In this document: positions 34,613 through 49,409 of the stretch, in pieces
Layout of the letters: every line of letters starts with the position of its first letter
Position numbering within the stretch: the first letter of the stretch is position 1
DNA from: a virus
Lineage: Duplodnaviria; Heunggongvirae; Uroviricota; Caudoviricetes
IMG/VR virus record: IMGVR_UViG_3300033120_000611
Length of the DNA stretch: 62,993 bases
Strand: one strand, 5' to 3'
Program-made: the position numbers and the translations under genes
The notes under the pieces: generated by a model
Seen by the model: only the letters and a program-made list of their open reading frames with translations
What the model was told of the DNA's origin: nothing
Databases searched by the model: none

Positions 34613-34948
34613 TTATAGAGAAGATAGTTGGGCACTTGCATTAGCTTCAGAAGCTACTGCTGCTTGTGTAGTACTAGCCTCTAATTGACTAGTCTCTATC
34701 TTCTTAGGAGCTTTAACCGGATTCTTACCATCCAGGTTCACCTTCACTACGTAATCTCTTTCTGGAGCATCTGGTTCTGGTTCATTCTTTCTGATAGTAA
34801 AGCCACAATCTCTTAGGGCCTTCTTCATATCTTGGAAATCAATACCATACTTAGTTGCCAGATCTTTTACCGGGGTAAAGTCTACATTGTAATCAATGTT
34901 AAGTTCTCTTTGTGAGAGGGTTACTACTTTCTTTTCTGTTGTTGACAT
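34613..34948 (-). CDS. Hypothetical protein
   Basis: ORF track. Confidence 0.6.
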   Translation of the reverse strand: MSTTEKKVVTLSQRELNIDYNVDFTPVKDLATKYGIDFQDMKKALRDCGFTIRKNEPEPDAPERDYVVKVNLDGKNPVKAPKKIETSQLEASTTQAAVASEANASAQLSSL

Positions 34949-34962
34949 GTTGTTAATTTTAA

Positions 34963-35637
34963 TTATTTAGCGAATTCTATGATAGCTTTGTGTACCTCAT
35001 TGATGTCATTAGGAATCTTATAGACATCTTCCCCAAAGATACCAGGGGGACATTTTGCTGAAGTATTTTCTTCAGCTAGTTTGAAAAAGTATTCTGGTTT
35101 ACCAGCTTCGTTGAATTTATTATCAGCAATTAAGACGATAGTAAATTCTTTCTCTACAACTCCTTCCCACTCCTTACCTTTTACTTTTGCCCTCTTTTCT
35201 AAGTTTCCTTCCATACCTAGAATTTCGTAGTGAGCAGTAAGATATACTTCTTTATTGATCTTTTTGATCAATGTAAAGAATTTAGCTAACTCCTCATTGT
35301 AAAAGTTAAAAATTTCATAGCCTTTTTTAGTTGCTCTCGCATCAGCCATGAGCATATCTGTATATGCTGAGAATGAATCTATTCCTATAGCTTCAATTTC
35401 AGGATTTTTGGCATACGAAACTAGAGCATTATTTAGCTCAACTCGATCTTTTGGACGAGATTCGTGTACAAAATTGTTCTTGAATGGTAGAGGTTTATTC
35501 TCTACGTTAATGAAGCCAAATGTCTTGGGATTGACATTGCGGAATGAGCTGGTTTTTCCCTTGCCCGGAGGACCAAGTAGTAGCACCTTGTAAAAGTCTT
35601 TACGTGGCGCTACCACTGGGTTTGATTGTTCTGCCAT
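34963..35637 (-). CDS. AAA-family P-loop ATPase (Sak4/AAA_24-like recombination protein)
   Basis: Walker A GPPGKGKT; IGIDSFS; EKEFTIVL; SAKCPPG. Confidence 0.75.
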   Translation of the reverse strand: MAEQSNPVVAPRKDFYKVLLLGPPGKGKTSSFRNVNPKTFGFINVENKPLPFKNNFVHESRPKDRVELNNALVSYAKNPEIEAIGIDSFSAYTDMLMADARATKKGYEIFNFYNEELAKFFTLIKKINKEVYLTAHYEILGMEGNLEKRAKVKGKEWEGVVEKEFTIVLIADNKFNEAGKPEYFFKLAEENTSAKCPPGIFGEDVYKIPNDINEVHKAIIEFAK

Positions 35638-35656
35638 TTATTGTTTTTTGTTGATG

Positions 35657-35664
35657 CAAATATA
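35657..35664 (-). promoter_or_regulatory. Bacteroidota-type -7 element (TATATTTG)
   Basis: Exact TAnnTTTG match 20 nt upstream of the ATPase ATG. Confidence 0.6.
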
Positions 35665-35672
35665 AGTATAAA

Positions 35673-37286
35673 CTATGAGTTTTGCAAGTTTTCAACAGGT
35701 ATTTTTGTGATGGAATTCAATCTTTCTCTGATCTCTGAGAGAGTACTTAGATTGGATAATTTGCCATCCAAAAATATGGTTTGAAGCAGGCCGCCTTCCT
35801 CTTGTTCAGGAGTTACTTGTTGATTCAGGACCAGGTTATCTTGTCCATCATATCTCATCATCCAACCTGGACAATCTGGCCTATTGTTAAATACTTGTAA
35901 TCTACCCTTAGCTGACTTCTTCTCTCCGGAATCAGTAATAGGCGATTTGAATATCTCCCTACCTACCCTAACTTCTTTTGTTATATCGCCAATAGGCTCA
36001 TCAGATAGCTGGACTTCCATAACTTCGCCATAAGTAGCTTTCATCGCAAAGCCAAAAGTATCTCTCGTATTGTACTGATAAGTATAAGAACCAATACCAA
36101 AAACAATATTAGTGGAGGCAAACCCTTTTGCTTTAAGTCTCTCACAAATTGCTTCCGCTCTTTCCAGAGTAATCGAATCCCCGTAAATAGCACCAATATG
36201 AGGATCAAGTTCTTTATAACCATATTCATTGATTTTACCACCAAATACATCCCATAGAAGTTCTATTACTCCCTTTTGGACTGGAGTGAAATCTTTTTGA
36301 GCATCATTCCACATCTCATAATCGATAGGCTGTTCTGTCCCACAGATAATATCTACTGGATCTCCTGAGTCAGGACGAATTACCACCTTACCATCCCTGG
36401 CCAGGATCTCATCTTTAAGGATAGGCAAATACTCTGTGCATACCTTCCAGAGATCCCAAGTATCTGATACTATGGAGATTATACCCTTAGGTACGATTTC
36501 ATGGATTAGTCTTCTAAAGGTACCAATCTCATCATCTTTAGTACCCATACACATAACACTATGCTCAGTAGCCGGGACAGATGTACCTACTAACTCAGCT
36601 TCAATATTTGCTCCATAGTATTGCTCTAGGAACTCAATAGCTGCGATAGTATCTGAGCCACTAAAGGAGAGAAGGTGACCAGCACCACTAGTGCAAGCAG
36701 ACTCCAAAGAAGACATACCACGCATACTAAAATCATGTCCTTGAAACTGTACGAAGTCTGTAGATCCTGTTGTTTCGATAGCATATCTCGAAAGAAGCTT
36801 TTTGTACTCATGAGCTATTGTTGCTGAAGTCATTGGCTGCCATACTGTACAGCTTAGAATAGTTTCTAGATAATTAACCAGCCAGTACTCCTGATCCCGG
36901 GTATTAGTTATAGTTATACATGGAACTCCTATTGGACACAAGGTTCCTTCAGGAAGAGTCTTTACATGAAGAGGAAGATATCCAAGATCCCATAAATCTT
37001 CCATGTATTTAGTGCTTACAGCATCTTTACCTAAGGTAAAGTCCATCATTCTTTTATACCTGGCTATAGCTATTTCTTTAGGCATATGGAAGAAGTTCTC
37101 CCCCCACTGTCTAATCAAGATCTCTAGCACCCAGTATTGAGGACCAAAGACTACAACCTTATTAACTCCTTTCATTCTACTCTTTCTTGGAGTTAGATTG
37201 CTAGAGATCTTAACTGTTCTATTAGGATACATTGGGGCATGACTAGGCTTATAAAAATCCACCTGGTTTGGCGGGAATATGTTCAT
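35673..37286 (-). CDS. Nicotinamide phosphoribosyltransferase-like protein (Nampt/Namat)
   Basis: DFYKPSH; HDFSMRG; PATEHSVM; VSDTWD; IRPDSGDP; IYGDSIT; RDTFGFAMKAT. Confidence 0.9.
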   Translation of the reverse strand: MNIFPPNQVDFYKPSHAPMYPNRTVKISSNLTPRKSRMKGVNKVVVFGPQYWVLEILIRQWGENFFHMPKEIAIARYKRMMDFTLGKDAVSTKYMEDLWDLGYLPLHVKTLPEGTLCPIGVPCITITNTRDQEYWLVNYLETILSCTVWQPMTSATIAHEYKKLLSRYAIETTGSTDFVQFQGHDFSMRGMSSLESACTSGAGHLLSFSGSDTIAAIEFLEQYYGANIEAELVGTSVPATEHSVMCMGTKDDEIGTFRRLIHEIVPKGIISIVSDTWDLWKVCTEYLPILKDEILARDGKVVIRPDSGDPVDIICGTEQPIDYEMWNDAQKDFTPVQKGVIELLWDVFGGKINEYGYKELDPHIGAIYGDSITLERAEAICERLKAKGFASTNIVFGIGSYTYQYNTRDTFGFAMKATYGEVMEVQLSDEPIGDITKEVRVGREIFKSPITDSGEKKSAKGRLQVFNNRPDCPGWMMRYDGQDNLVLNQQVTPEQEEGGLLQTIFLDGKLSNLSTLSEIRERLNSITKIPVENLQNS

Positions 37287-37304
37287 ATTATTTGATTAAA
37301 GATT

Positions 37305-37338
37305 AAAAAATAAGGGTACCCCAGATTAGGATACCCTT
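37305..37338 (-). terminator. Putative intrinsic terminator
   Basis: AAGGGTA/TACCCTT stem with an A6 run on the + strand. Confidence 0.55.
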
Positions 37339-37354
37339 GCTACCTATTCACTAA

Positions 37355-38176
37355 TTACTTGATCCTGTATAGTTCTCCACCTATCTTCAAAGACTTGAGT
37401 GTCTGAAGATTAACCTGGCGAATAGGATTTGGTTGTGTCTTATCTCTTAGCTTAGAAGCCTCCTTGACCTTAATATATCCAAGAACCGGTGCTCCCTGGT
37501 TAGCTAGATATTGACAGTTCATTACTCTTTCAGCTCCTTCCTTATCTATAAAGGTAGCAGTGAAGAAGTGCCCCCTATTGTTTTCCATTCTGGCCTGAGC
37601 ATCTTTACGAGACATATACTTAGTCTTAGATGCTGGCTTAACTGTCTTAGTAGCAGTTGTGGTAGATCTCCTTCCCTTACTTGTAGAAGCTTTTGGAGAT
37701 GATGGAACCGGGCTATTGATAGCTGAATATACTCTATGAGCGCTTGCTCCTGATCCTACAGTAGTGTAAGTCCAACGGCCGGCTGCTAGTTCATCCATGA
37801 TATCACTAATCATTTGTTGATCCCAGTAGTATTCTTTTTCGTAGTCAAACAGTAGTCTTGACTTTATCTCTAAAGTAGTTACTGTGTTATTAGCTTTGAG
37901 CAAGCTTTCTGCTGCCTCTAGAACGAGGTCTTTCTTTTTTTGAGATGCCATATATTTGTTTTTTAATTTGATATCATTGTATGATACATACCACCCATCT
38001 ACCCCAAAAGATGGAACCTTGTTAGAGTTCTCTCTTTCAGCATAGTAGTATGGATTTCCAGTGTGCTTATCATGTACACTAATAATAACTACAGTTGTTC
38101 CCAAACTAAATTGGTGACCACCAGACTTACCAATTATTGTACAGACATCACCTTTCTTATAGCCTACTTTAACCAT
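37355..38176 (-). CDS. Hypothetical multi-domain protein
   Basis: 273-aa ORF; SH3-like N-terminus, S/T/K-rich linker, C-terminal FFTATFIDKEG...RVMNC. Confidence 0.6.
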   Translation of the reverse strand: MVKVGYKKGDVCTIIGKSGGHQFSLGTTVVIISVHDKHTGNPYYYAERENSNKVPSFGVDGWYVSYNDIKLKNKYMASQKKKDLVLEAAESLLKANNTVTTLEIKSRLLFDYEKEYYWDQQMISDIMDELAAGRWTYTTVGSGASAHRVYSAINSPVPSSPKASTSKGRRSTTTATKTVKPASKTKYMSRKDAQARMENNRGHFFTATFIDKEGAERVMNCQYLANQGAPVLGYIKVKEASKLRDKTQPNPIRQVNLQTLKSLKIGGELYRIK

Positions 38177-39372
38177 ATGATGTATTTTATCCGGTTCTGT
38201 TGCTCTTTATAAGCAATGATCTCCGAGTTAAGTAATCCATGTCCAGCATTGACATGAGTAGAATCAAATCCCCTACTATCAAGCTCCTTGAAGTTTAGTG
38301 GGAAAGAATTTCCTTTGTACCACCCATCATACACAAATGGATTTCCAGTATGAACTTCATATACTAATAAGATCTTATCTGGGTCATGACCAGTGTAGTT
38401 CAGGGATTTATTCACTACTTCAGAGAAGTAATTACCATCTCCATAAACTTTACCAGAGAACTGGAAGTTGCCTTGTGGTCTAATCTTTAATCCTATCTCT
38501 AGGATTGGTACAACTGATGTACATTTAGTACCATGAATTAGTATCCTGGTTTTCTTATCCTTCCGGCTTGCTACCCATTGATCAAAGTCTTTATCTTCAG
38601 ATGGCTTATTAACTTCAAATATAGACTCTATTCTACGACCAGTATTATTAATCTGCTTGATTAGATAGTCGATCTCTGGTGTTGCCTTACATTCCTTCAT
38701 TGTAATACCAAGCACATCTAAGATAGTCTTGGTCTTTTTAGAGACTTTCTTTTTCTTAGCTGGTTTATCAGTCTGCATAGACACCTGTGAAGCCATAGCG
38801 TCAAGATTATCTTGCTCCTGGATCATAGTCCTATCGAAGTCTATAACAGGCAGAATGTGATGTCTCACGTTACTCATCTTTCTCGGAATAGTAGTATACA
38901 AAGATACTAAAAATTCATTAGCTTTTGCTTCAAAATCCTTTTTCTTTTTGTCTAAACCATTCAATTTATTAATGATACTTTGAGCCTCATCAACTTGAGC
39001 CTGAGTAACACTAGTAGCCTTAACAGAATAGGTAGTAGATATGAGGTGATTAGTATATCTGGTCATAAGGGCCATAAACTCTTCCACCTTATTATCAGAT
39101 ATTTTTGATAAGCTTGTTGGTGTAGAGTCATCCTTCTTGACTTCTACTGATACAAAAGCTGTTACATCTTTATACCCCTTTTTGACTTTCTCATCATACT
39201 TACTCTTTCACTGACTTGCTGGGTAGGACTTTACTTGAGGAGTTCCTCCCTCAACTCTTCCATACTTAACAGAAAAGTTCGAGCTTACTCCATCATGTGT
39301 CATCTCATAAAACTTATTGTTATTAGCTTCGTGAGTGACCATTATAAGCTTTACGAATTTAGCCTCTGCCAT
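38164..39372 (-). CDS. PARP-like ADP-ribosyltransferase (WGR + helical + catalytic domains) with an in-frame TGA at codon 55 (39208-39210)
   Basis: ATG at 39372 reads NNNKFYEM...KYGRV...Q*KSKYDEKVKKGY in frame with the track ORF at 39087. The downstream part has LYTTIPRKM (helical domain) and HGT / GNYFS / KSLNY / NSEII (H-Y-E triad). Confidence 0.8.
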
Positions 39373-39764
39373 AGATTTCTGAATTTAGATTTAAAAACTT
39401 CGATTTTAGTTTTTGTTGTATACGATTTTAAATCTTTATCATCTCCAATATAGATAAGATTTTCTGCTACCATATCACCCCCAATTCCTATACAATACTT
39501 TGTACCTTTTGGTATAATGAAGTTTCTAATTGTTCCGTAAGTTGGTTTAGCTATATACGAGTGGTAACCCTCACTTACAATAAATTCACCCTCTACTCCA
39601 CTAAATACTATAGGGACGTGTGGTTGTAATTCCCCCTTCTTGTATCTATAGTAGTCTTGATAATATGGTTCGAAGGTATCATCAGGTTTTATATAACCCT
39701 TTTTATAGCAAACAATATCTTTGTCAGCTATTTTTAAATCTCTATCAAATGTTGTTAGACACAT
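39351..39764 (-). CDS. Hypothetical protein
   Basis: KIADKDIVCYK...GYHSY...IPKGTKY. Confidence 0.6.
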   Translation of the reverse strand: MCLTTFDRDLKIADKDIVCYKKGYIKPDDTFEPYYQDYYRYKKGELQPHVPIVFSGVEGEFIVSEGYHSYIAKPTYGTIRNFIIPKGTKYCIGIGGDMVAENLIYIGDDKDLKSYTTKTKIEVFKSKFRNLWQRLNS

Positions 39765-40269
39765 CTTGCTTTGGTTTATAGATCACAACTGTTACGTCTA
39801 GATCTGTTAAATAATCTTGGATAAGTTTCTTGACGTCATTCCAGTTTCCTTTAGCTAATCCACAACCTATTTGAGGTAAGCCTATATGCTGACCCTTAAA
39901 TCGGTGATTGATCTTTTGGAGACACATGATTAGCGCTGGATAGCTTAATGGATGAGTAGCTCCTACTCTATGGGAGTATCCCGGACCAAATTGAGTATAA
40001 CAGTTTATAACTGTAAGGAATGCTTTCACAGGAGATCTCTCAACTGATAGTTTAGCTTTTCCATAATCGATCTGGCCTAGTTTATTTATATCTCCACGAT
40101 AGCAAAGAGCTTCAAGTTTAAACCTATCACATTCAAATGCTCTGGCCATCTGAGGAGCTATTCCGGCTCCCATAGTACAGAAGCAATTACATCCATGAGC
40201 TACAATGTCAAACTGTCCTTGTTCTGCGAGATCAATGAGATCTCCATCTACTTCTTTATATGTTCCCAT
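39745..40269 (-). CDS. Macrodomain protein (ADP-ribose binding/hydrolase)
   Basis: GDL; AHGCNC...MGAGIA; INCYTQ; LPQIGCGLAKGNW. Confidence 0.85.
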   Translation of the reverse strand: MGTYKEVDGDLIDLAEQGQFDIVAHGCNCFCTMGAGIAPQMARAFECDRFKLEALCYRGDINKLGQIDYGKAKLSVERSPVKAFLTVINCYTQFGPGYSHRVGATHPLSYPALIMCLQKINHRFKGQHIGLPQIGCGLAKGNWNDVKKLIQDYLTDLDVTVVIYKPKQDVSNNI

Positions 40270-41174
40270 TAGAATACATTTAGTTGTTTAACATTGTCTT
40301 CTATCCACTTCACTTCTCTTGAGGGTAATCCTCCCTTAAGATAGTTGCTATAGGAGTTGGTGGTATAGATCTTATCAAAGCTATCCATCAATCCTCCCCA
40401 ACCAGCTGAAAATATTCCGTGAGTTACTATTAAGTACCTCTTACCAGTTCTTTCTGGCTGAGCTAACTTAAATTCATTAGAAATATTGATGAAAGTTCTA
40501 CCTCCATCACAGATATCATCTACTATGATAATATCCTTTGAGAAGTGATCTACTCTTACTGGAACATGTACCTTAGTAAGCTTTCCATCAGTATCCCGGA
40601 ATTTACTACAGCATATGATTTCGTCCTTAAAGCCTATCTCATCCGCAAGATGGTATATTTTCTTAAGAGCTCCACCATCTGGGGAGACCAAAACGAAATT
40701 ATCTTCAGTATTGGGACCATAGAGATCGTGTAGGGCAAACCTAACCAAGTCCTTATTAGATTTACTCTTTAGGCCATTTATACATGCTAGAGCTATATCT
40801 GAGTGTACATCTAAGCACTCTATAGATTCATAGTTTTGTGCATTAAGTATAGGTGCTATAATATCAACTAGATACGATGTTCCACCCTCTACGAATTGCC
40901 TATCACTACGAGCTCCTAGGATGTAGGGAATATAGAGATGAATCTCTTTAGTCCCATATCTTTTTAGCGCTTTAGTTGCACATATGATAAGCTCTAGGTC
41001 TTTAAATGAGTTTAATCTAGAGACAATTTTTATTGCCTGACCGGACCAATCTCCTATCCAAGTACTACTTAGCTTACGTCCGGTTATAGTCACATCCTGT
41101 TGCCCATCAGGGAATTTGGATATCTTATACTTTAGCCCAGACCTGTCTTCACTTGTTAGATCTAGTGTTACCAT
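40269..41174 (-). CDS. Ribose-phosphate pyrophosphokinase-like protein (Prs/Adps)
   Basis: FPDGQ; PYILGARSDR; DVHS; SPDGGA; IVDDICDGGRTF; VTHGIFS. Confidence 0.85.
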   Translation of the reverse strand: MVTLDLTSEDRSGLKYKISKFPDGQQDVTITGRKLSSTWIGDWSGQAIKIVSRLNSFKDLELIICATKALKRYGTKEIHLYIPYILGARSDRQFVEGGTSYLVDIIAPILNAQNYESIECLDVHSDIALACINGLKSKSNKDLVRFALHDLYGPNTEDNFVLVSPDGGALKKIYHLADEIGFKDEIICCSKFRDTDGKLTKVHVPVRVDHFSKDIIIVDDICDGGRTFINISNEFKLAQPERTGKRYLIVTHGIFSAGWGGLMDSFDKIYTTNSYSNYLKGGLPSREVKWIEDNVKQLNVF

Positions 41175-41385
41175 TGTCTTTAGTTGAGAATTTGTAAATA
41201 AAATATGCGATTAGAATAGCCCACCAGTATCTTACGAATAGTAGACTAACTATAAACTGAGGTAGCGGTGTATACTTCCACTTTTTGAATTTGTCTACTG
41301 TAAAAACGAAACAAATTACAAATAGGCAGATTTTAATTGCTAGATCATATTCTGATAGCATCACTTGGTACTTATACATGATCAT
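41149..41385 (-). CDS. Small membrane protein
   Basis: Hydrophobic ORF bridging the ligase and Prs-like genes. Confidence 0.5.
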   Translation of the reverse strand: MIMYKYQVMLSEYDLAIKICLFVICFVFTVDKFKKWKYTPLPQFIVSLLFVRYWWAILIAYFIYKFSTKDNGNTRSNK

Positions 41386-42463
41386 CTCCTTTTGTTTTAT
41401 CAAGACGGACTCCAAGCATAACTGGGTGTCTTGGTACTCCATCTTCGGAATACTCAAAGAATCTTAACTCAGCTACTTTGCCTATGTAGTCATTCTTGTT
41501 TATTAGTAGATCTTCCCTTTCTTCATGAGACATCCTCCAGCCGGCTTTAACTTCATCGTCCTTAGCCCCCTTCCATTCGAATACTGGAACTCCCCACTCT
41601 GGTCTTTGATCAGCTGGACGAATATCCTTTATCACTAGAGCTATATCTAAGAAGTCTTTACGTTTTAGTAGATTTGAACTTCTACCATTGACTTTATAGC
41701 CTGCATCTCCCCAGCGTAATATACTTCCCTCGTATCCTTCGGCAAGGAACTTAGCATGTAGTTTGTCATACTCAGCTTTGCTTCTAACCGGATAAGTTGG
41801 TACTATTTGGATAACTCCTTTATGTTCCTCCGGAACTAATGCTACCCACTTTTGGAGCTCTGAATATCTTACAGTAAATGGCTGATCTATAGTAAGATCA
41901 TAGACATGATATCCAAGAGCCTCACTTTCACCAGGACGATACTTCTTAGCTAATCTCATATTACCTTGGAAGGTAAGACCATGGGAATAAAGTTCTCCAT
42001 CCCATGCTATATTAGGCATAGATTCCAAGACCTTCATAATATGAGGTACAGTAGTAATATCAGTACCTTCTCGAGATTTAATCCCGGTTGTAGTACCTAA
42101 AGCTCTCATACCATCTAGTTTAGGCTGAGCATAGGCGTTATTCCAGTCAATCTTTTTAGACTCTTTGGAATACTCCTTAGCTAACATAGGTAGCATAACA
42201 TCTCCATCTTCAGCCTCCCTCTGGGTCTGGAAATAGCCCTCTTTAATCTTTTGTGCTACAAGTGATTCCATCTCTAGAATAGCCTGAGCTTGAGGAGTAG
42301 TTTCATTCGATCTCCCCTCATTTTTTGTCTTACAAGTAGTTTTATGTAGTAAAGGCTTATCAGTACCCACTACACCACTCTCTTGTAAGTGGACAGCACC
42401 CTCTGTCCAGGTCTTTAGATACCGGATCTTCCCCTTAGTATCTTTTTTGAATATTGTTACCAT
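41372..42463 (-). CDS. lig: ATP-dependent DNA ligase
   Basis: PMLA; QPKLDGMRA; DGELY; YDL; EGSILR; LLKRK; PRHP. Confidence 0.9.
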   Translation of the reverse strand: MVTIFKKDTKGKIRYLKTWTEGAVHLQESGVVGTDKPLLHKTTCKTKNEGRSNETTPQAQAILEMESLVAQKIKEGYFQTQREAEDGDVMLPMLAKEYSKESKKIDWNNAYAQPKLDGMRALGTTTGIKSREGTDITTVPHIMKVLESMPNIAWDGELYSHGLTFQGNMRLAKKYRPGESEALGYHVYDLTIDQPFTVRYSELQKWVALVPEEHKGVIQIVPTYPVRSKAEYDKLHAKFLAEGYEGSILRWGDAGYKVNGRSSNLLKRKDFLDIALVIKDIRPADQRPEWGVPVFEWKGAKDDEVKAGWRMSHEEREDLLINKNDYIGKVAELRFFEYSEDGVPRHPVMLGVRLDKTKGDDHV

Positions 42464-42930
42464 TATCCTATTTTTACAGTTCTCTTTTTGACTACAATTG
42501 CAGCCCCGATTGTACTATCTTCCCTCCAATTAGGAATATCAGACCAGTCTCCACTATCCATTCTCTCATAGTAGTCTGTTAGATCTTTAGCAAATTGTCT
42601 TAGAAGCTTTAGTTTATCCTGATCGAGAGTATCTGGATGACGAATCTCTGAGATCTCATTAAGATCAAAATGCCCATTTTCTGGTCCATCTTCAACTTTT
42701 TCTTTAGTCTCTCTAAGATTATATGGAGTATAAAGAATATCTCCTATGATAAGGATTTCTCCATCATCATATTGTAACTCTCCTTCGTGTCCAAATAGCT
42801 CTAGACATTTTTCTGGACTTGTCATTCCATAATCTCTCCAAAGGCACCACTCTTCATGATCTGGCCCAACCATATCATATTCTTTTATAGGAGTCTTCCA
42901 CTGAATAGGATGATCTTGTTCTGTTGTCAT
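42463..42930 (-). CDS. Hypothetical protein
   Basis: ORF track; coupled to its neighbours. Confidence 0.6.
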   Translation of the reverse strand: MTTEQDHPIQWKTPIKEYDMVGPDHEEWCLWRDYGMTSPEKCLELFGHEGELQYDDGEILIIGDILYTPYNLRETKEKVEDGPENGHFDLNEISEIRHPDTLDQDKLKLLRQFAKDLTDYYERMDSGDWSDIPNWREDSTIGAAIVVKKRTVKIG

Positions 42931-43130
42931 GGCTTTATTATTACATTTTTGTGATATTGGCGAACTTCATGACTTATCTGAGCACAGGATATGCTAAGCG
43001 TTTTATCCGCTATGGATTTAACTTTGCCTAACATAAGATCCTTATATCCAGGTCTCATGAATGCGATCTCTTGACCAACTTCTAGTTTCTGATTGAAAAA
43101 GTCGTAGGCTATAATTGGCTCTCTTTTCAT
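42927..43130 (-). CDS. Hypothetical protein
   Basis: ORF track; ATGA overlaps. Confidence 0.6.
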   Translation of the reverse strand: MKREPIIAYDFFNQKLEVGQEIAFMRPGYKDLMLGKVKSIADKTLSISCAQISHEVRQYHKNVIIKP

Positions 43131-43966
43131 TTTGTTCTACCTTTTTGTTCTGGATATAATTCTTTTACAGGATCACTTTGCCAAAACTGCATAGTATCTG
43201 TATCCATAATAGTTAACTTTCCATCAAAGCCAGCTCCAGTATCAAGATTGATAACATTACCAGCTATAATAGGACGATCCATCATCTCTTCATAACTTGG
43301 TATAGTTTCAATAAATGATGCTTCTCCACCAAACTCTCTTCTATTTGGATAGTATCTACCATTTGGTAGAAAATCTGATTTATGCCAGTCAGTTACTTTT
43401 GTATGTCCTATAAAGACTCTCTTAATTCCATCAAGGTAAAATTTTATCTCATCTGGTTTCATACTAGCTGCTAAAGCTTGTGAGAATAGATCTCTATCCC
43501 AGAATAGTGTAGTGAAACCACCTGGTTGTTGATGTAATGGAAAATGCCTATTCATTCCACCATGTACGAAGAGTGTTCCATCTTCATCCAGATGATAGTT
43601 TCCGAGCTCATGGAAGAACTTCTTATGCTCTACCGGAATATGTATAGGATCTAATTGCTCAATATCTAGGGCCTTCTGATATGACTCATATGTGCCCCAG
43701 CCACCATGCTTCCAGTTAGGCTGATGTTCTCCAGTAACTATATACTTCTGGAACCAATGGTCATGATTACCAAGAATAAATATACACTCATTGGTTTTAC
43801 TCAACTCTATACATTTATCTATTACCTGGTATACCTCATCCCATCCATCTACATAATCACCAAGAAATACTAGGCGATCATCTGGAGTAACCTCAGCTCT
43901 CTCCAGCACTTGTAATAGTGCCCGGTAAGCTCCATGGATATCTCCTATTGCAAGTGTTCTTCTCAT
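43127..43966 (-). CDS. Calcineurin-like metallophosphoesterase (Ser/Thr phosphatase type)
   Basis: GDIHG; GDYVDG; GNHD; FVHGG; GHT; DTGA. Confidence 0.85.
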   Translation of the reverse strand: MRRTLAIGDIHGAYRALLQVLERAEVTPDDRLVFLGDYVDGWDEVYQVIDKCIELSKTNECIFILGNHDHWFQKYIVTGEHQPNWKHGGWGTYESYQKALDIEQLDPIHIPVEHKKFFHELGNYHLDEDGTLFVHGGMNRHFPLHQQPGGFTTLFWDRDLFSQALAASMKPDEIKFYLDGIKRVFIGHTKVTDWHKSDFLPNGRYYPNRREFGGEASFIETIPSYEEMMDRPIIAGNVINLDTGAGFDGKLTIMDTDTMQFWQSDPVKELYPEQKGRTK

Positions 43967-44709
43967 AATATTGTTATTATTGATGGTTTAAATAGTATCT
44001 GCTTATACCTATTATTAAGGACTGCAGCATTAGAAAATATTACGTTTCTACCAACGATTTTATGAGATTCAATCCTAGTTGGTCCTTCATGAATATGTCC
44101 AAAGCAGTGAAGTTTCAAAGAATATAATCTCTCTTTAATTACATTCATTAGATCTTCACATCCTCTATGTACATCTTCATCAGCATACTGTTTAAAAGCT
44201 TCTGGGATAACATCTAGAATCCCATATGGCGGACCATGAGTTATAAGAACCTGAGTATCGATATCTATCTTATCCCAGATCTTTTTTATCTCTCTACCTC
44301 TATCAGCATTATAGGCCCAGTACTGCTTATGAAATGATGGTGTATAAGCTGATCCATAGAATTTAATTCCCTCATAGGTATAGGAATTATCATCTAGAAA
44401 TACTACTCCTGATCCATCTATCATAGCCATAGCATCAGCGTACATATTATCTGCAGCTATTTGTGGCATCTGACCTAGATGTACTCTACTATCCAAAAAC
44501 TTCTTGTCAAGTACTATATCATGGTTACCTGGTATGAAGATCTTCACATTTGCTGGCTGTCGTTTAAACCAGTCTAGAAAGTCTCCTAACTCCTCAATAT
44601 TAGTCCTTCCACCAATATCTCCGGAATGTATTAAGACATCACATTTAGGTATATCCATATTCCTATGGAACTTTCCTCCATGTGTGTCTGAAATGTGTAC
44701 TATATTCAT
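43963..44709 (-). CDS. Calcineurin-like metallophosphoesterase (MPPED-like)
   Basis: SDTH; HSGD; GNHD; THGPP; FGHIHE. Confidence 0.85.
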   Translation of the reverse strand: MNIVHISDTHGGKFHRNMDIPKCDVLIHSGDIGGRTNIEELGDFLDWFKRQPANVKIFIPGNHDIVLDKKFLDSRVHLGQMPQIAADNMYADAMAMIDGSGVVFLDDNSYTYEGIKFYGSAYTPSFHKQYWAYNADRGREIKKIWDKIDIDTQVLITHGPPYGILDVIPEAFKQYADEDVHRGCEDLMNVIKERLYSLKLHCFGHIHEGPTRIESHKIVGRNVIFSNAAVLNNRYKQILFKPSIITIL

Positions 44710-44868
44710 TATCCTTTTCTTATTATTTTAATTGAATGGTTATGAGGTAAATATGATAATGCTATCATTAGTATTCCTACTACATAATGGCCAGATATAG
44801 TTACTATAAATCCCCACAGAATGAGTGCTATACCTATTGCTAGATATAATACACTATCGTCTTCTTGA

Positions 44869-45984
44869 TTATTTCCCATACTTCTTTTTGAAGTTTTCGT
44901 AAAACTGATTTAGCTCACGTGGTTCGTCCTTAGCGTGTGGAAGCTGGATAAAAGTCTCACTTGCTCCATTAAAGTATAGGCCTAGCTCATATCCTGAGTC
45001 TGACTCATTAGATTTAAGTATTGATAGGTTTCTATAATTATTCTGGAGGAGGGTAATATCATATCCTAAATCCTCCTCAAATTCAAACCGATCTGGACTG
45101 AATATACCAAAGACTATGTGATAATCCCGGGAAGTAGTCTTATTCTCTCCCAGCGCTGCTATGGATGGCTTAACCTTAGCTTTAATTGCCTCACCCTGGT
45201 AAGATGAGAATGTAAGCTTTTGGCTATATAAGTCTTGCTGCTGTATGGTTACTACCGTAGCATCATAAAACTTACATAGCTGCCGGCGGGCATACTTAGC
45301 TGTCCACTCTCCCATTGCTGCCTTCAGATCTTGATGATGGTCCTCTTTAGTCATATTAGATAGGTTATCTACTATTACTATGACATGCATCTCAGGATCT
45401 TTAGGTGTATATAGCTTAGGAATATCATGTGTTACTCCCTTACTATCAACTTTCTTCTCGATCTCAACAGTTCCATTTTGGACAAAATATTCCCTAACTT
45501 CCTTGTAGATTCCATAAGGATTATGGATATTATCAATAATAGTCAGGTATTTCTCCAAATCCTGGAAGTACTCTTCACAACTTCTTATCTTAGCCAATAC
45601 ATTATCTGGTAATATGTCGGACTTTGATTCGAGTTGCTGCAGTGTTATATCTATCCCAAACTCCTTCTTAAGTCTGAAACAGATCATATTATTCATTACC
45701 CGGGATGCTGGATCTTCTAGTAGAAATAGGAATATCTTAGGCTTTATACCACAATCCGGATTCTCCTTAATAAAGGAGTACACGGAATATATGTACATAA
45801 ACCGGATAAACTTACTTTTACTAATACCAGTACCAGCTGTGACGCCAATATGCTGTCCCCTCTCAATACCAGGTAGAACCTTAACTAATCGAGAGAATGG
45901 ATAAGGAATACAGACAAACTTTCCTGATTCCCTGATCTCCTTATTTCTCTCTAATTTGGCCAGGGCCTCTTTGAATCTTGTCAT
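44869..45984 (-). CDS. DnaB-like replicative helicase
   Basis: GIERGQHIGVTAGTGISKS; IVDNLS; IQQQ; LSILKS. Confidence 0.7.
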   Translation of the reverse strand: MTRFKEALAKLERNKEIRESGKFVCIPYPFSRLVKVLPGIERGQHIGVTAGTGISKSKFIRFMYIYSVYSFIKENPDCGIKPKIFLFLLEDPASRVMNNMICFRLKKEFGIDITLQQLESKSDILPDNVLAKIRSCEEYFQDLEKYLTIIDNIHNPYGIYKEVREYFVQNGTVEIEKKVDSKGVTHDIPKLYTPKDPEMHVIVIVDNLSNMTKEDHHQDLKAAMGEWTAKYARRQLCKFYDATVVTIQQQDLYSQKLTFSSYQGEAIKAKVKPSIAALGENKTTSRDYHIVFGIFSPDRFEFEEDLGYDITLLQNNYRNLSILKSNESDSGYELGLYFNGASETFIQLPHAKDEPRELNQFYENFKKKYGK

Positions 45985-46712
45985 TATAGTCTTTTTTCGA
46001 ATTTATTAATAGCTTTCTTATCCAGACCTTGGCTTATAGCTAGTATCTCGTCAGCTAGAGCTGACTTCTCATTCTTCTGGATGAAGTATGATGATGTAAC
46101 CATAAACTTGTATCCATCCTTAGCGTACCTATCTACATAGTTCTTGGTAGCTGCTAGTATTAATTCATCAGTAAGCTTAATCTTATAGTGCTTTTTAAAC
46201 ACTGATCGATAGTTTCTAATAAATGTCTTTAGCTTCTTCTCAATCTCCACAGCAGATGACCTCGCATATTTTTGAGATGGTAACTTGATTTTTGGAAATA
46301 GCTCCAGATACTCAAAAGATAATTTACTAGTATCTATTACTGGTTCTTGCTCCTCTTGGCATTCAAATCCGGCCATTAACTCCTCCACTAACTCAATTCC
46401 CTTTTCAGATATTCCATACATAAGAGTATCGCTAGATTGATCCAGGAATCCATGCATATGGAGATTCTGATACTCATAAATAAGTACCTGAGATCTAGTT
46501 CCATTATTATCATAGAGATCTAGGAGATCTATCTTATTTTGATGTAAAGCTATTAGAATAAATAGCTCATTGATGGACATATCTTCTTTTAGAAGAGTAT
46601 TAAGGACTACAGAGTTAATAGTAAGACCTATGGTTGAGGATGCAACTGGAGTAACCTCTTCAGTTTGAGATATTTGTGGAGGTAGTTGCTCATTGATCTT
46701 TGGTAGGGTCAT
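45984..46712 (-). CDS. Hypothetical protein adjacent to the helicase (possible loader/initiator)
   Basis: HTH-like N-terminal half; coupled to the DnaB-like gene. Confidence 0.55.
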   Translation of the reverse strand: MTLPKINEQLPPQISQTEEVTPVASSTIGLTINSVVLNTLLKEDMSINELFILIALHQNKIDLLDLYDNNGTRSQVLIYEYQNLHMHGFLDQSSDTLMYGISEKGIELVEELMAGFECQEEQEPVIDTSKLSFEYLELFPKIKLPSQKYARSSAVEIEKKLKTFIRNYRSVFKKHYKIKLTDELILAATKNYVDRYAKDGYKFMVTSSYFIQKNEKSALADEILAISQGLDKKAINKFEKRL

Positions 46713-46890
46713 CTTCTGTTTTATTTAATTCGTGAAGTAATTTACGCTCCTCAAACTCTTGTCTAAGGGCGTCAAAAGTATCGATACTATCTGGATTTTC
46801 CAAGAAATTTATAGATTCTTTTGCATCCAAATAGATGAGCCAAAACCTGAGTTCATTACTCATTTCCGGCTCCTTAGATGGAGTTGGCAT
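46690..46890 (-). CDS. Hypothetical protein
   Basis: ORF track. Confidence 0.5.
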   Translation of the reverse strand: MPTPSKEPEMSNELRFWLIYLDAKESINFLENPDSIDTFDALRQEFEERKLLHELNKTEDDPTKDQ

Positions 46891-48109
46891 TGTAGTATTT
46901 TACTTTAGATAAGTCAAAGAATTCCAGGGCTTTATCTAGCCACTCTAGTTCTACTGTATTTGTACATACAATATACACCTTAGCTACCTTTCCAGGATTA
47001 TCATACTCGAATCCAGTTAGGCGAGATATCCTCTGGCCAAGATTCTCAGGATTACTATCATGACTATTAATTATAGCTAGATTTATAGGCTTGACTGTTA
47101 CGCCAGCCTCAAACATATCTACAGTTGCTAGTATCAATCCTTTACCTTCCAGGAAGTCTTCTTTGACCTTAATGTCTTTCTTTTTTGAATGGTATACCGG
47201 TACTCCCAGCTGATCTGCTATCTCTGTTAATCCACAAAATATAATAGCTCTCTTATTCTGCTCTTTAGCTTTAGCTATCAGTCTTTTAGTGACATTAAGT
47301 TTAGCTAGAGATTTCTTAAAGAGATTCATCCTCTGAATTGGCAAGAATCCATAATCATCTGATAGATTGGGCTTACTTTCTTGGTGTTTTTCTCTTGCTT
47401 CGAGATCATTTTCAGGTATTTGCATAAGTTTATTTTCCCAAACTTCCTTCTTATGCCAATACTGTATCTTAATTTCTTCCATTCTATTGGTTAGAAATCT
47501 ATATCTATCTGCCTCAGTAACTGTAAAGTTCTTCAGCTTTGCCGGCCTTACATAGCGTGTTACACTATCCAGGTCAGTCAGTAAAACGTATATCTCATAG
47601 TCAGTAATAACTTTCTCTCGAATTCCTGTCTCTATGTCGTACCAACCTACAATGGGTAAACCAGTTGCAGCTTTGATCTCTCTTTCCGTCTTATCTGAGA
47701 TTGTACCACTTAGGCCCAGAATGTTTTTACATCCTAGTTCCTTAAGCTTGTTGAGCTCTTCTAGGTTAGCCGGGGAGAACATATGTATCTCATCAGCTAT
47801 TATAAGATCGTAAAGAAGGCCATTTTCAGCCTTTTCTACCATCTTCCATAGACTTGCTGTAGTTGTGTAGTGTATAACTGCAGGATTATAGCCCCATTTC
47901 TCCAAATCAGCCTCCCAGGAGGCCTTAATGGTCTCTATTGGATGGATGATAAGGACAGATGGAATTTTATCCAGATTAGCGCCTAATTTATTCAAGGCAT
48001 TGATAGATGTTTTGATCTTACCAAACCTAGGACATAAATGTAAGATACCAAATTTGCTTTGCAGCCACTTATCAGCAAATTCCTGCTGTCGAATATCTCT
48101 TAGTGACAT
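46874..48109 (-). CDS. Superfamily 2 helicase
   Basis: PRFGK; IADEIH; GLSGT; FEAGV; QRISR. Confidence 0.8.
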   Translation of the reverse strand: MSLRDIRQQEFADKWLQSKFGILHLCPRFGKIKTSINALNKLGANLDKIPSVLIIHPIETIKASWEADLEKWGYNPAVIHYTTTASLWKMVEKAENGLLYDLIIADEIHMFSPANLEELNKLKELGCKNILGLSGTISDKTEREIKAATGLPIVGWYDIETGIREKVITDYEIYVLLTDLDSVTRYVRPAKLKNFTVTEADRYRFLTNRMEEIKIQYWHKKEVWENKLMQIPENDLEAREKHQESKPNLSDDYGFLPIQRMNLFKKSLAKLNVTKRLIAKAKEQNKRAIIFCGLTEIADQLGVPVYHSKKKDIKVKEDFLEGKGLILATVDMFEAGVTVKPINLAIINSHDSNPENLGQRISRLTGFEYDNPGKVAKVYIVCTNTVELEWLDKALEFFDLSKVKYYNANSI

Positions 48110-48303
48110 TATAATTTAGTTATGAAGAAGTTATCCGGATTCACTGTCTGTCCAGGTTTAATTGTAATATCTTCCTGCTCTACTAGGTCTCTTATCATGC
48201 TTTCAGTTATAATAATTGTCCTCTCGGGCTGTTCTTCGAACTCTGCATCTGTCATACTATCGTCGTCTATAACATAGGTGACACTTAATATTTGCTTACT
48301 CAT
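48109..48303 (-). CDS. Hypothetical protein
   Basis: ORF track; coupled. Confidence 0.55.
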   Translation of the reverse strand: MSKQILSVTYVIDDDSMTDAEFEEQPERTIIITESMIRDLVEQEDITIKPGQTVNPDNFFITKL

Positions 48304-48656
48304 TCTGAAAATCCTGTTGGTAAATTAATCTGATTCTCGTTAGCAAAGGCTTGAACCTTGATCATATACTCTGACCATTGTTTAGTATCAAAACCTTTTG
48401 TACTTTGACCTTTATTATAGGTCTTTTTCATATACTCGTGAACTTCATCTCCAGAATCCCATCCATACTCCTGAGCAATTATATCACACCACTTGTGGTA
48501 TAATTTTGATTGATCAGTATTATTACTGGATCCAGTTGGAGTTACTTGAATAGTGAACCAGCTATCATCTGGAAATTGACTAAGCCACTCTATTAGCTTG
48601 TCCTTCTGTTGAATTCGTAGTATCTTGCCGTCCCAAAATAGTTTGCCTGTGTACAT
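48300..48656 (-). CDS. NinB-like protein (tentative)
   Basis: DQSKLYHKW...VHEYMK...STKGFDTKQWSEY pattern. Confidence 0.4.
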   Translation of the reverse strand: MYTGKLFWDGKILRIQQKDKLIEWLSQFPDDSWFTIQVTPTGSSNNTDQSKLYHKWCDIIAQEYGWDSGDEVHEYMKKTYNKGQSTKGFDTKQWSEYMIKVQAFANENQINLPTGFSE

Positions 48657-48876
48657 TTTTATTTGATTTTTCTATTGGAATTGGATTCTTCTTTCTCTTA
48701 TAACCGGTTTCCTCCATAAATTCACTATTGAGCTGGTGAATTCTATCGAGATACTTTTGTCCAAACTCATTGAATAACTCATCTGAGGTAAGCATCTCTT
48801 CTTTCATACAGTCAATCATCTTATAGAACTCATCTCTGAGCTCTTTCTCCTTTTTCAGGATTCCTAAAAAACTCAT
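48580..48876 (-). CDS. Hypothetical protein
   Basis: ORF track. Confidence 0.5.
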   Translation of the reverse strand: MSFLGILKKEKELRDEFYKMIDCMKEEMLTSDELFNEFGQKYLDRIHQLNSEFMEETGYKRKKNPIPIEKSNKNVHRQTILGRQDTTNSTEGQANRVA

Positions 48877-49409
48877 TTAATTTGTTTTAATCGTTGAGAA
48901 TATGTTTTTCCATCTACTATTGTTGTGCAATATACCTTATCTAGGAAGTAATAGTAGTCCTCATCACTCTCAATATTGAATGCATAGGCAGCTTGCCATA
49001 TTCCATAATCGATTAGTGATTCTTTCCAGTTATCATATGATGCCATGATTGGATCTATATTAGTTCCAGTTGATGGTCTTCCCAGACAAGCATGCATACC
49101 GGTAACATTATTATACATCTTAAAATATGGACTTGTGTAGTGAGCGCTTTCTATTACTGTTTGCTGCCATACTATATGCTGATGCTTTAGATGTATCTTA
49201 TCTATATAAGCTATTACGTTTTCATCTGTACATGCATCAGTTCTAGGAGTTAATACTACTGGTATTCTTTCAACAATAGTATTTACCTTAACAGCTGATC
49301 CGAACCCCATAACTAAAAACACACAAGCAACTAGAATACCTAATCTAAGATTCCAAGTTTTTGTGTGTTCATACTGCAAAGTCTTTTCATTAAATTTGTA
49401 AAGTTTCAT
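48873..49409 (-). CDS. Membrane-anchored glucosaminidase/lysozyme-like protein
   Basis: N-terminal TM helix; QTVIESAHYTS...NNVTGM...YDNWKESLIDY. Confidence 0.55.
   Translation of the reverse strand: MKLYKFNEKTLQYEHTKTWNLRLGILVACVFLVMGFGSAVKVNTIVERIPVVLTPRTDACTDENVIAYIDKIHLKHQHIVWQQTVIESAHYTSPYFKMYNNVTGMHACLGRPSTGTNIDPIMASYDNWKESLIDYGIWQAAYAFNIESDEDYYYFLDKVYCTTIVDGKTYSQRLKQIK

Follow-up and report, generated by a model that had tools for sequence, protein, structure and literature searches.

A PARP cassette within a predicted NARP1-AP-type gene set of an uncultured phage: probably separable modules in a replication/repair region

A 63-kb stretch of the roughly 127-kb genome of an uncultured phage (hereafter the window) carries Adps, macrodomain and Namat genes that, judged by homology, are the published NARP1-AP set, with a PARP gene and a conserved partner gene placed between macrodomain and Namat. 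We make this assignment because the Nampt-like protein matches solved Namat structures, the Prs-like protein belongs with verified Adps enzymes, and the macrodomain protein is homologous to the one in the Thalassavirus operon, with the same 1-nt junction to Adps. The preliminary description of this DNA had proposed that the four enzymes form a closed NAD+ cycle. Having compared about 28 distinct PARP loci, we consider it probable that the block consists of separable modules lying side by side within a replication/repair region and not of a four-enzyme machine; a dedicated closed cycle is possible but not supported. We found no paper describing a PARP cassette inside NARP1-AP.

The Adps, macrodomain, 137-aa, PARP, partner and Namat frames are co-directional on the minus strand, where the preliminary description had placed them. 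Five of the six were confirmed as ORFs, as was the DNA ligase upstream, whereas the PARP at 38164-39372 is not a single ORF. Each gene from Adps to the partner overlaps its neighbour by 1-22 nt, and the 3 kb separating Adps from Namat hold four genes and a terminator-like hairpin. Upstream lies an ATP-dependent DNA ligase (41372-42463, minus strand; Pfam DNA_ligase_A_M 5e-12, OB_2 2e-07; phrog_114 4e-72), a gene found directly upstream of PARP in most relatives. The gap between ligase and Adps is occupied by a 76-aa hydrophobic ORF (41149-41379, minus strand) recognized by sequence inspection and an AAGGAG-type ribosome-binding site; its end overlaps the Adps start, and it is also called as a gene in loci L031 and L032. 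Both this ORF and the hairpin before Namat had been omitted from the preliminary description. The 137-aa ORF (39351-39764, minus strand), which we treat as an accessory gene, has no match in Pfam, PHROG or NCBIfam and gave no usable match in an Atlas search; homologues occur in L001 and, at a different position, in L026, and none in L028. Downstream of Namat is a Sak4-like AAA_24 single-strand annealing protein (34963-35637, minus strand; Pfam AAA_24 2.5e-09; phrog_2872 8e-28), and the wider neighbourhood consists of replication and repair genes (helicase, Mre11-like phosphoesterases, ligase, Sak4, primase, UDG, RNR, exonuclease and Pol A).

The Nampt-like protein (537 aa; 35673-37286, minus strand) is, on sequence comparison, a Namat, a nicotinamide ADP-ribose transferase far nearer to the solved Namat than to true NAMPTs. 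It matches PDB 9W5X/9W5W, the structures of SPbetaL1 Namat (PMC12774641), at 9e-159 (532 bits), compared to 1e-59 (205 bits) for the best canonical NAMPT, and is 51% identical to SPbetaL1 Namat. In that enzyme, Arg40 of the SCL and the SCH aromatics Phe392 and Tyr396 form the adenine-selectivity clamp, with a catalytic His and Arg306 (PMC12774641); by alignment the window protein has R37 at the position of R40, Tyr at both F392 and Y396, and retains catalytic H245 and R306. The Prs-like protein (301 aa, PRPS fold; 40269-41174, minus strand) groups with verified Adps and is predicted to be an ADP-ribose pyrophosphokinase. It falls in phrog_619 (2e-55), as does the verified SPbetaL1 Adps (2e-73), and lies below the cutoff of every PRPS family, including TIGR01251, where it scores 74.5 bits and the verified Adps 106, both under the cutoff of 113; its Pfam match is likewise below threshold (22 bits, cutoff 26). 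Its PP loop, DDICDGGRTFI, is identical in the NARP1 Adps of E. coli phage outra. Equivalents of Arg87, His121, Asp161, Asp212, Asp213, Asp216 and Lys185 are all kept (alignment A6; Adps structures, PMC13586617), although PRPS enzymes share these residues and the PP loop is itself variable across verified Adps. The suggestion that the Prs-like and Nampt-like proteins make up a NARP1 pair (Adps and Namat) is borne out by the Namat structure match and by the PHROG and cutoff behaviour of Adps.

Bacillus phage SPbetaL1 and E. coli phage Bas63 carry NARP1 systems (Osterman et al. 2024). The window Namat is 51% identical to that of SPbetaL1 with clamp and catalytic residues kept, and the SPbetaL1 Adps belongs to the same PHROG with acceptor, PP-loop Asp and Lys185-equivalent residues kept, although identity is only 29%. 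In those systems Adps and Namat sit side by side in a single operon, whereas those of the window are 3 kb apart. Closer in layout is NARP1-AP, the Adps-Adpp-Namat set known from Vibrio phage Gary and from other Thalassavirus phages (bioRxiv 10.64898/2026.01.28.702374, Osterman et al.), which has the same three families in the same order, its macrodomain gene starting on the last Adps base; we made the sequence comparison with Thalassa, which is congeneric with Gary. The window differs in the 137-aa ORF, PARP, partner and terminator-like hairpin inserted between macrodomain and Namat genes.

The macrodomain protein (174 aa; 39745-40269, minus strand) is of the Adpp/SCO6735-like type, the start of its gene sharing 1 nt with the Adps stop. 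Its Pfam match is below threshold (18 bits, cutoff 22), and the assignment is supported by phrog_335 (3e-50) and by pairwise homology: it aligns over its full length with Thalassa gp184, encoded between Adps and Namat (34% identity, E 7e-20). In NARP1-AP the protein at this position is the ADPR-1''-phosphate phosphatase Adpp (bioRxiv 10.64898/2026.01.28.702374). Among solved structures it matched SCO6735 (PDB 5e3b, 7e-08) and, partially, Poa1p (1.7e-4). Its motifs NCYTQ and IGCGLAKGNW place Gln and Ala where TARG1 has Lys84 and Asp125, whose catalytic roles are established (PMC9411070), so the TARG1-type Lys/Asp dyad is absent by alignment from the window macrodomain family; the distant macrodomain of L022 has ITK and GCGLDG at the dyad positions. 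The ALC1-like macrodomains SCO6735 and Bt_1257 (PDB 5E3B, 2FG1; PMC9411070) likewise have Gln for the catalytic Lys and GCGLAxG without the TARG1 Asp. However, SCO6735 has low sequence identity to the window protein and is a bacterial DNA/protein de-ADP-ribosylase with no link to NAD+ reconstitution. The family is very widespread among phages in many genomic contexts, and since orthologues (56-62% identity) adjoin PARP in genomes without NARP1, the protein has a role apart from Adpp, possibly that of PARP eraser. An orthologue found with NARP1 alone, with PARP alone or with both suggests a general ADP-ribose-liberating enzyme, which bears on the annotation 'Adpp'.

The PARP frame (402 codons; 38164-39372, minus strand) matches the Pfam catalytic domain (2e-17) and WGR (7e-4) and PHROG phrog_23333. 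Its profile aligns with the WGR, HD and ART domains of PARP1/2/3, and the H-Y-E triad (H280, Y315, E384) is invariant and intact (alignment A1), an architecture common to the DNA-dependent (clade 1) PARPs that upholds the earlier suggestion of a break-sensing family. The preliminary description had read this frame as one ORF, yet it is split at codon 55 by an in-frame TGA (39208-39210, minus strand), one transition from TGG, leaving a 54-aa WGR fragment (39208-39372) and a 303/307-aa ORF with the HD and catalytic domains (38164-39087). All 21 full-length relatives have intact frames and encode Trp at this position, each with TGG, and apart from Trp55 the window frame and every other invariant residue are intact (alignment A1). 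The identical TGA occurs in JGI 3300033066, where a separate assembly yielded a variant genotype, as well as in two Logan assemblies; the codon is real and inherited and not unique to one assembly. A 7.3-kb block around it is identical between the two genotypes. We found no other in-frame TGA on the coding strand and no genome-wide recoding, and none of the window's 15 tRNAs is a suppressor. The proposed cycle, which by its own account would fail with an inactive PARP, here encounters an enzyme at least partly disabled by a nonsense codon, while the NARP1-AP genes of the window, unlike PARP, are intact. Because its own PARP is interrupted, the window is a weak exemplar of the PARP-in-NARP1-AP layout.

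The start of the partner gene (273 aa; 37355-38176, minus strand) overlaps the PARP end by 13 nt, and the gene follows PARP at 21 of the 22 metagenome loci that could be assessed and at most IMG/VR loci. Its predicted structure (model pLDDT 82) opens with a variable SH3-like N-terminus, continues through a winged helix and a disordered linker, and ends in a WYL-like barrel, with fold matches to an AFDB WYL domain (9.5e-6) and to Atlas WYL_2 clusters (TM 0.71 by target). It had no PDB match at E <= 0.001 (CapW/BrxR were weak, E 0.03-0.1) and no Pfam match. The predicted domain order resembles that of the wHTH-WYL regulators CapW, BrxR and PafBC, in which a winged helix precedes the WYL barrel, but there is no sequence-level match to them and the partner has the additional SH3-like N-terminus and long disordered linker. 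A terminator-like hairpin (37338-37312, minus strand) between the partner gene and Namat has a 12-bp stem followed by a T-run and a minimum free energy of -19.5 kcal/mol (z -3.4, with 0 of 200 shuffles equally stable). A hairpin directly follows the partner gene in six of six relatives folded as well as in the window, where it sets Namat apart from the Adps-PARP array. The PARP cassette consists of PARP, partner and terminator, usually adjoining DNA ligase.

We then surveyed co-occurrence of the four enzyme genes. The nested layout does recur beyond this genome, in its closest relatives: the order Adps-macrodomain-PARP-partner-Namat is confined on the PARP tree to one clade of three phages (72-73% PARP identity), and a short, more divergent contig, L049, has Adps-macrodomain-PARP-partner in a layout only partly resolved. 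Outside this clade and L049, loci on the PARP tree are ligase-PARP-partner, and most PARP-partner loci of relatives have no Adps or Namat nearby. Among the more complete genomes, G006 (97% complete) has macrodomain-PARP-partner and lacks both Adps and Namat, G010 (100%) has PARP and no NARP1, G003 (99%) carries its sole macrodomain copy in a contiguous Namat-Adps-macrodomain operon 45 kb from PARP-partner, and G002 has Adps and Namat 26 kb away from PARP. Adps-like genes occur in more than a thousand phage records, compared to only 15 for this PARP. Adps and Namat are adjacent in cultured phages SPbetaL1, ICP1, Tr1 and outra, and the annotated flanks of the PARP loci checked in cultured phages contained no NARP1 gene. 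The idea that the four enzymes behave as one system is not supported: PARP and partner mostly occur without NARP1 nearby, NARP1 is absent from G006 and G010 and lies 45 kb from PARP in G003, a macrodomain protein between Adps and Namat already has a published role, and the hairpin isolates Namat.

Under the separable-module reading that we favour, the first module would be a NARP1-AP-type NAD+ reconstitution set whose steps can be predicted from homology to characterised enzymes. The Adpp-type macrodomain protein would convert ADPR-1''-phosphate, and perhaps other ADP-ribose conjugates, to free ADP-ribose, the Adps-like enzyme would convert ADP-ribose and ATP to pyrophosphorylated ADP-ribose (ADPR-PP), and the Namat-like enzyme would combine ADPR-PP with nicotinamide to give NAD+, which would counter host NADase defences. 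The second module would be a self-contained cassette made up of a WGR-HD-ART PARP, the terminator and, between them, a winged-helix/WYL-like partner translationally coupled to PARP; in the window clade it is placed between Adpp and Namat. With TGG changed to TGA at Trp55, full-length PARP would arise only by rare UGA read-through, the products otherwise being a WGR stub of 54 aa and perhaps a protein that begins at Met100 and lacks WGR. ADP-ribose and nicotinamide set free by PARP and macrodomain could be recycled through NARP1, as a side benefit and not as the reason for the genes.

A dedicated closed cycle, in which PARP writes, the macrodomain erases, Adps and Namat keep the NAD+ pool undrained and gene order reflects the unit, is coherent biochemically, given that the products of PARP and macrodomain, ADP-ribose and nicotinamide, are exactly the NARP1 substrates (PMC12774641; 10.1101/2024.02.11.579819). 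The macrodomain orthologue associates with both PARP and NARP1, genes from Adps to the partner overlap, and retention of the nested order in three phages and partly in L049 may indicate selection for togetherness. Nevertheless, we judge this cycle unlikely in view of the many PARP-partner loci without NARP1 nearby, the two complete or near-complete genomes lacking it, the 26-45 kb separation in two others, the disparity between more than a thousand Adps-like records and 15 PARP records, the hairpin before Namat, the interruption of PARP beside intact NARP1-AP genes, and a macrodomain without the TARG1 catalytic dyad. An elaborated form, in which a freshwater phage clade co-opted NARP1-AP to regenerate NAD+ from its own PARP and macrodomain products in a self-sustaining ADP-ribosylation cycle at breaks, with the TGA as a leaky throttle, seems to us quite unlikely. 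UGA is the leakiest stop codon and is misread by tRNA-Trp. A programmed stop of this kind, admitting Trp at low frequency to throttle a costly NAD+ consumer, would fit a TGA that falls precisely on an invariant Trp, differs from TGG by a single base in an otherwise intact frame, and is present in two genotypes or samples. However, TGG stands at this codon in each of the 21 aligned relatives, we identified no read-through signal, the window has no suppressor tRNA and no other in-frame TGA, and the identity of the 7.3-kb block in both genotypes means that the mutation may be very recent, leaving programmed read-through very doubtful compared to a loss-of-function allele.

SCO6735, the nearest solved homologue of the macrodomain, shares its Gln and efficiently reverses DarT thymidine ADP-ribosylation (PMC9411070), there is a weak NCBIfam DarG match, and the family's spread across many phage contexts would suit a protein whose main job is removing ADP-ribose from DNA modified by a host DarT-type defence, and which is neither Adpp nor PARP eraser. 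Yet the Adps-macrodomain junction is laid out identically to that of verified NARP1-AP operons, whose macrodomain is homologous, and the sole copy in G003 sits in its Namat-Adps-macrodomain operon, making a primarily anti-DarT role distinctly unlikely. That the Prs-like and Nampt-like proteins are an ordinary salvage pair, a PRPP synthetase and a NAMPT making NMN for a host or phage NMNAT, is highly improbable. All core catalytic residues are indeed common with PRPS and NAMPT, the two genes are not adjacent here, and Namat keeps NMN-forming activity in vitro (PMC12774641); but the 532 bits to Namat against 205 to NAMPTs, the Namat clamp, the failure of the Prs-like protein at all PRPS cutoffs and its place in the verified Adps PHROG argue against salvage, and the window ORFs tested (63 kb of the ~127-kb genome) included no Nudix gene and no NMNAT, the partner whose absence distinguishes NARP1 from NARP2.

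The phage counter-defences NARP1 and NARP1-AP were described recently and are well characterised; PARPs of phages have been catalogued only, and we found no demonstrated target of any phage PARP in the literature searched. A clade with a PARP cassette inside NARP1-AP makes it practical to examine whether phages offset the NAD+ they themselves consume, and the conserved PARP-partner-ligase linkage is a testable lead on prokaryotic and viral PARP function. The PARP probably uses ADP-ribosylation to signal or mark DNA breaks. Its linkage to DNA ligase, remarked on in the preliminary description, recurs as far away as Cellulophaga phages: the PHROG 23333 proteins of phi4:1 and phi17:2, annotated as poly(ADP-ribose) polymerase, share WGR-HD-ART, H-Y-E and a nearby ligase with the window PARP, although they are 34% identical to it and the window copy has the premature TGA. 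In phi17:2, the gene that follows PARP shows weak homology to the partner (E 3e-4).

The preliminary description of the window reported six co-directional genes, and ORF calling recovered all six on the minus strand: a Prs-like gene (40269-41174), a macrodomain gene (39745-40269), a 137-aa ORF (39351-39764), a PARP frame (38164-39372), a 273-aa gene directly after the PARP, hereafter the partner (37355-38176), and a Nampt-like gene (35673-37286). From the Prs-like gene through the 273-aa gene the block is tightly packed, with neighbours overlapping by 1-22 nt. An ATP-dependent DNA ligase gene (41372-42463, minus strand) lies upstream of the block, in a replication/repair region with a gene set of helicase, two Mre11-like phosphoesterases, ligase, Sak4, primase, UDG, RNR, exonuclease and Pol A. 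The interval between the ligase and Prs-like genes is filled by a 76-aa hydrophobic ORF (41149-41379, minus strand) with an AAGGAG ribosome-binding site, and this Shine-Dalgarno-like site hints at a host with SD-led initiation. Upstream of the ligase, calcineurin-like (Mre11/SbcD-type) phosphoesterase genes form a tandem pair (43127-44709, minus strand), and in many relatives one of the two keeps synteny with ligase-PARP. Between DNA ligase and Adps, the closest relatives have a gene for an RNA ligase (PF09414; 6965-7564 of locus L026 and 7346-7951 of locus L028); its absence from the window indicates that end-repair gene content near the PARP varies. The 137-aa ORF had no match in Pfam, PHROGs, NCBIfam or Atlas, and a megablast search of 50,697 phage records with the 5.5-kb block as query returned zero matches.

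By homology, the outer genes of the block belong to NARP1, the NAD+ reconstitution pair composed of Adps (Prs-like) and Namat (Nampt-like), as had been proposed for both. The Nampt-like protein matched the solved SPbetaL1 Namat (9W5X/9W5W; PMC12774641) far better than canonical NAMPTs (E values of 9e-159 versus 1e-59), with 51% identity to the SPbetaL1 protein. ADPR-PP specificity of Namat is enforced by Arg40, Phe392 and Tyr396 (PMC12774641); in an alignment to the solved Namat, Arg40 corresponds to Arg37 of the window protein, Phe392 is replaced by Tyr and Tyr396 is retained, and the catalytic residues His245 and Arg306 are also kept. The Prs-like protein scored below the cutoff of every canonical PRPS family (TIGR01251, 74.5 bits versus 113) and matched phrog_619 at 2e-55, a pattern shared with the verified SPbetaL1 Adps (TIGR01251, 106 bits versus 113; phrog_619, 2e-73), supporting its assignment as an Adps homologue. 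When the window Adps was aligned with those of SPbetaL1, ICP1, Thalassa and outra, the equivalents of Lys185, Asp212, Asp213 and Asp216 were conserved, and its PP loop (DDICDGGRTFI) is that of the Adps of E. coli phage outra, whose gene adjoins a Namat. These PP-loop and acceptor residues fit an Adps but are not decisive because they are common to Adps and PRPS (PMC13586617), and we dropped them as a discriminator between the two.

The window and Vibrio phage Thalassa share a 1-nt junction between the Adps and macrodomain genes, and the window macrodomain protein is 34% identical over its full length to Thalassa gp184 (E = 7e-20). In Thalassa, which we assume shares a genus with the tested phage Gary, Adps is followed by gp184 (157 aa, starting on the last Adps base) and then Namat. 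A macrodomain protein between Adps and Namat is the published layout of NARP1-AP, present in 15% of NARP1 operons, in which the macrodomain protein Adpp is an ADPR-1''-phosphate phosphatase that lets NARP1 beat aRES defence (10.64898/2026.01.28.702374). The closest solved homologue of the window macrodomain is SCO6735 (7e-08), which takes ADP-ribose off DarT-modified DNA efficiently and off protein less well, and whose essential Gln85 stands in for the catalytic Lys of TARG1/DarG (PMC9411070). The window macrodomain family retains this Gln (NCYTQ) and has Ala at the position of TARG1 Asp125, and these two differences argue that the window protein is not a TARG1-mechanism eraser; it may still have SCO6735-type eraser or anti-DarT activity. 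Macrodomain orthologues of relatives are 56-62% identical to the window's in every context. The orthologue in a Namat-Adps-macrodomain operon of genome record G003 (C1:6254-6847; locus L038:3255-3851) has a ~25-aa insertion, and a whole-record search found one TAA within the match; this gene may be interrupted, or merely carry an insert.

The PARP-family profile aligned to the WGR, helical regulatory and ART domains of PARP1/2/3. Across 25 IMG/VR and 26 metagenome loci, which partly overlap, a 273-aa gene homologue generally comes next after the PARP (21 of the metagenome loci, out of 22 that could be assessed), and the ligase is usually directly upstream. In Cellulophaga phage phi17:2, whose PARP is 34% identical to the window's, a weak partner homologue comes after the PARP and an ATP-dependent ligase after that. 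The partner was modelled (pLDDT 82) with an SH3-like fold at the N-terminus, then a winged helix and, beyond a disordered linker, a C-terminal barrel that matches WYL-domain clusters (AFDB, 9.5e-6; Atlas WYL_2, TM 0.71 by target); CapW and BrxR gave weak matches only, and a Foldseek search of the partner fold against the PDB returned nothing at E <= 0.001. In the window, a GC-rich hairpin (12-bp stem and T-run, z -3.4) separates the partner gene from Namat, and a hairpin also lies 3' of the partner in all six relatives folded, indicating that the PARP cassette ends a predicted transcription unit. Break sensing by the PARP, DNA or ligand binding by the partner, and the transcription-unit boundaries are inferences.

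The nested layout described for the window, with PARP and macrodomain between Prs-like and Nampt-like genes, recurs in its two closest distinct relatives (loci L026/L027 and L028/L029) but not in most PARP lineages. Both relatives have the order Adps, macrodomain, intact PARP, partner, two small ORFs and Namat, and a 3-kb contig (L049) carries Adps-macrodomain-PARP-partner. The PARP tree groups the window with L026 and L028 in a single well-supported clade (100/99); the placement of L049 is not resolved, and every other lineage has ligase-PARP-partner. Whole-record searches found macrodomain-PARP-partner with neither Adps nor Namat in G006 (97% complete), and a PARP and a TARG1-like macrodomain with no NARP1 in G010 (100% complete). 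G003 (99% complete) has a contiguous Namat-Adps-macrodomain operon, holding its sole macrodomain copy, 45 kb from PARP-partner; in G002 the PARP lies 26 kb from Adps and Namat, and the whole-record search gave no macrodomain. Among cultured-phage records, 1,026 have an Adps-like gene versus 15 with a window-type PARP, and none of the three cultured-phage loci inspected had an annotated NARP1 gene in the PARP flanks. The literature searched, including the supplement of the aRES preprint, yielded no account of a PARP inside a NARP1 operon or next to one.

The block best fits separable modules lying side by side in a replication/repair region, one of which would be a NARP1-AP counter-defence set and the other a ligase-linked PARP-partner cassette. 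The preliminary description had instead proposed that the four enzymes could form a closed NAD+ cycle, which is chemically coherent and which the conserved layout within the clade still permits. As a dedicated unit, however, the cycle is not borne out, since the modules occur apart (G006, G010, G003 and G002) and neither needs it. Gene positions, the TGA discussed below, homology-based family assignments, conserved residues and synteny counts were computed directly, and all enzyme activities of the block are predicted from sequence.

The PARP is the one broken gene of the set in the window phage. Although 38164-39372 was initially taken as a single ORF, its codon 55 is TGA (39208-39210), so that the frame yields a 54-aa WGR fragment and, for the helical and catalytic domains, a 303/307-aa ORF. 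An alignment of the window product, with the stop read as Trp, to 21 full-length relatives (mostly about 390-410 aa, 61-73% identical) placed the stop at an invariant Trp of the family, and all remaining invariant residues were kept, including His280, Tyr315 and Glu384. An identical TGA is present in JGI assembly 3300033066, a variant genotype of the window phage, and in two Logan assemblies, indicating that it is inherited and no one-off assembly error; the sequencing-run matches to the stretch were Logan contigs of one study only, with no RNA run listed among them. The window and the JGI variant are without differences over 7.3 kb (34733-42072), with SNP-rich flanks, and the 7 kb upstream (42073-49056, compared to locus L030) contains about 80 clustered, mostly synonymous SNPs. 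This contrast between block and flank amounts to a recombination mosaic, or else the block has recently swept. Because the block is unchanged between the two genotypes, the TGA allele could be recent, and the comparison carries no signal on PARP decay.

Genome-wide recoding of TGA was rejected, with 12 of 53 long ORFs terminating in this codon. The window's coding strand has no second in-frame TGA, the standard code already gives a coding density of 0.87, which barely shifts with TGA as sense, and the window's 15 tRNAs include no suppressor. Met100 of the PARP frame has an AAGGTGG sequence 8 nt before it (39075-39100, minus strand), which could permit translation of an HD+ART protein that starts beyond the TGA and lacks WGR. 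A PARP in a 212-kb relative with 28% GC (IMGVR_UViG_638276288_000001, L018:7992-9248) also has one in-frame TGA, aligned to the family's invariant Gly222. Reading TGA as sense raises coding density at that locus from 0.64 (standard code) to 0.88, with a similar gain at a low-GC control locus, and this phage may use TGA as Gly (code 25) or another TGA recoding.
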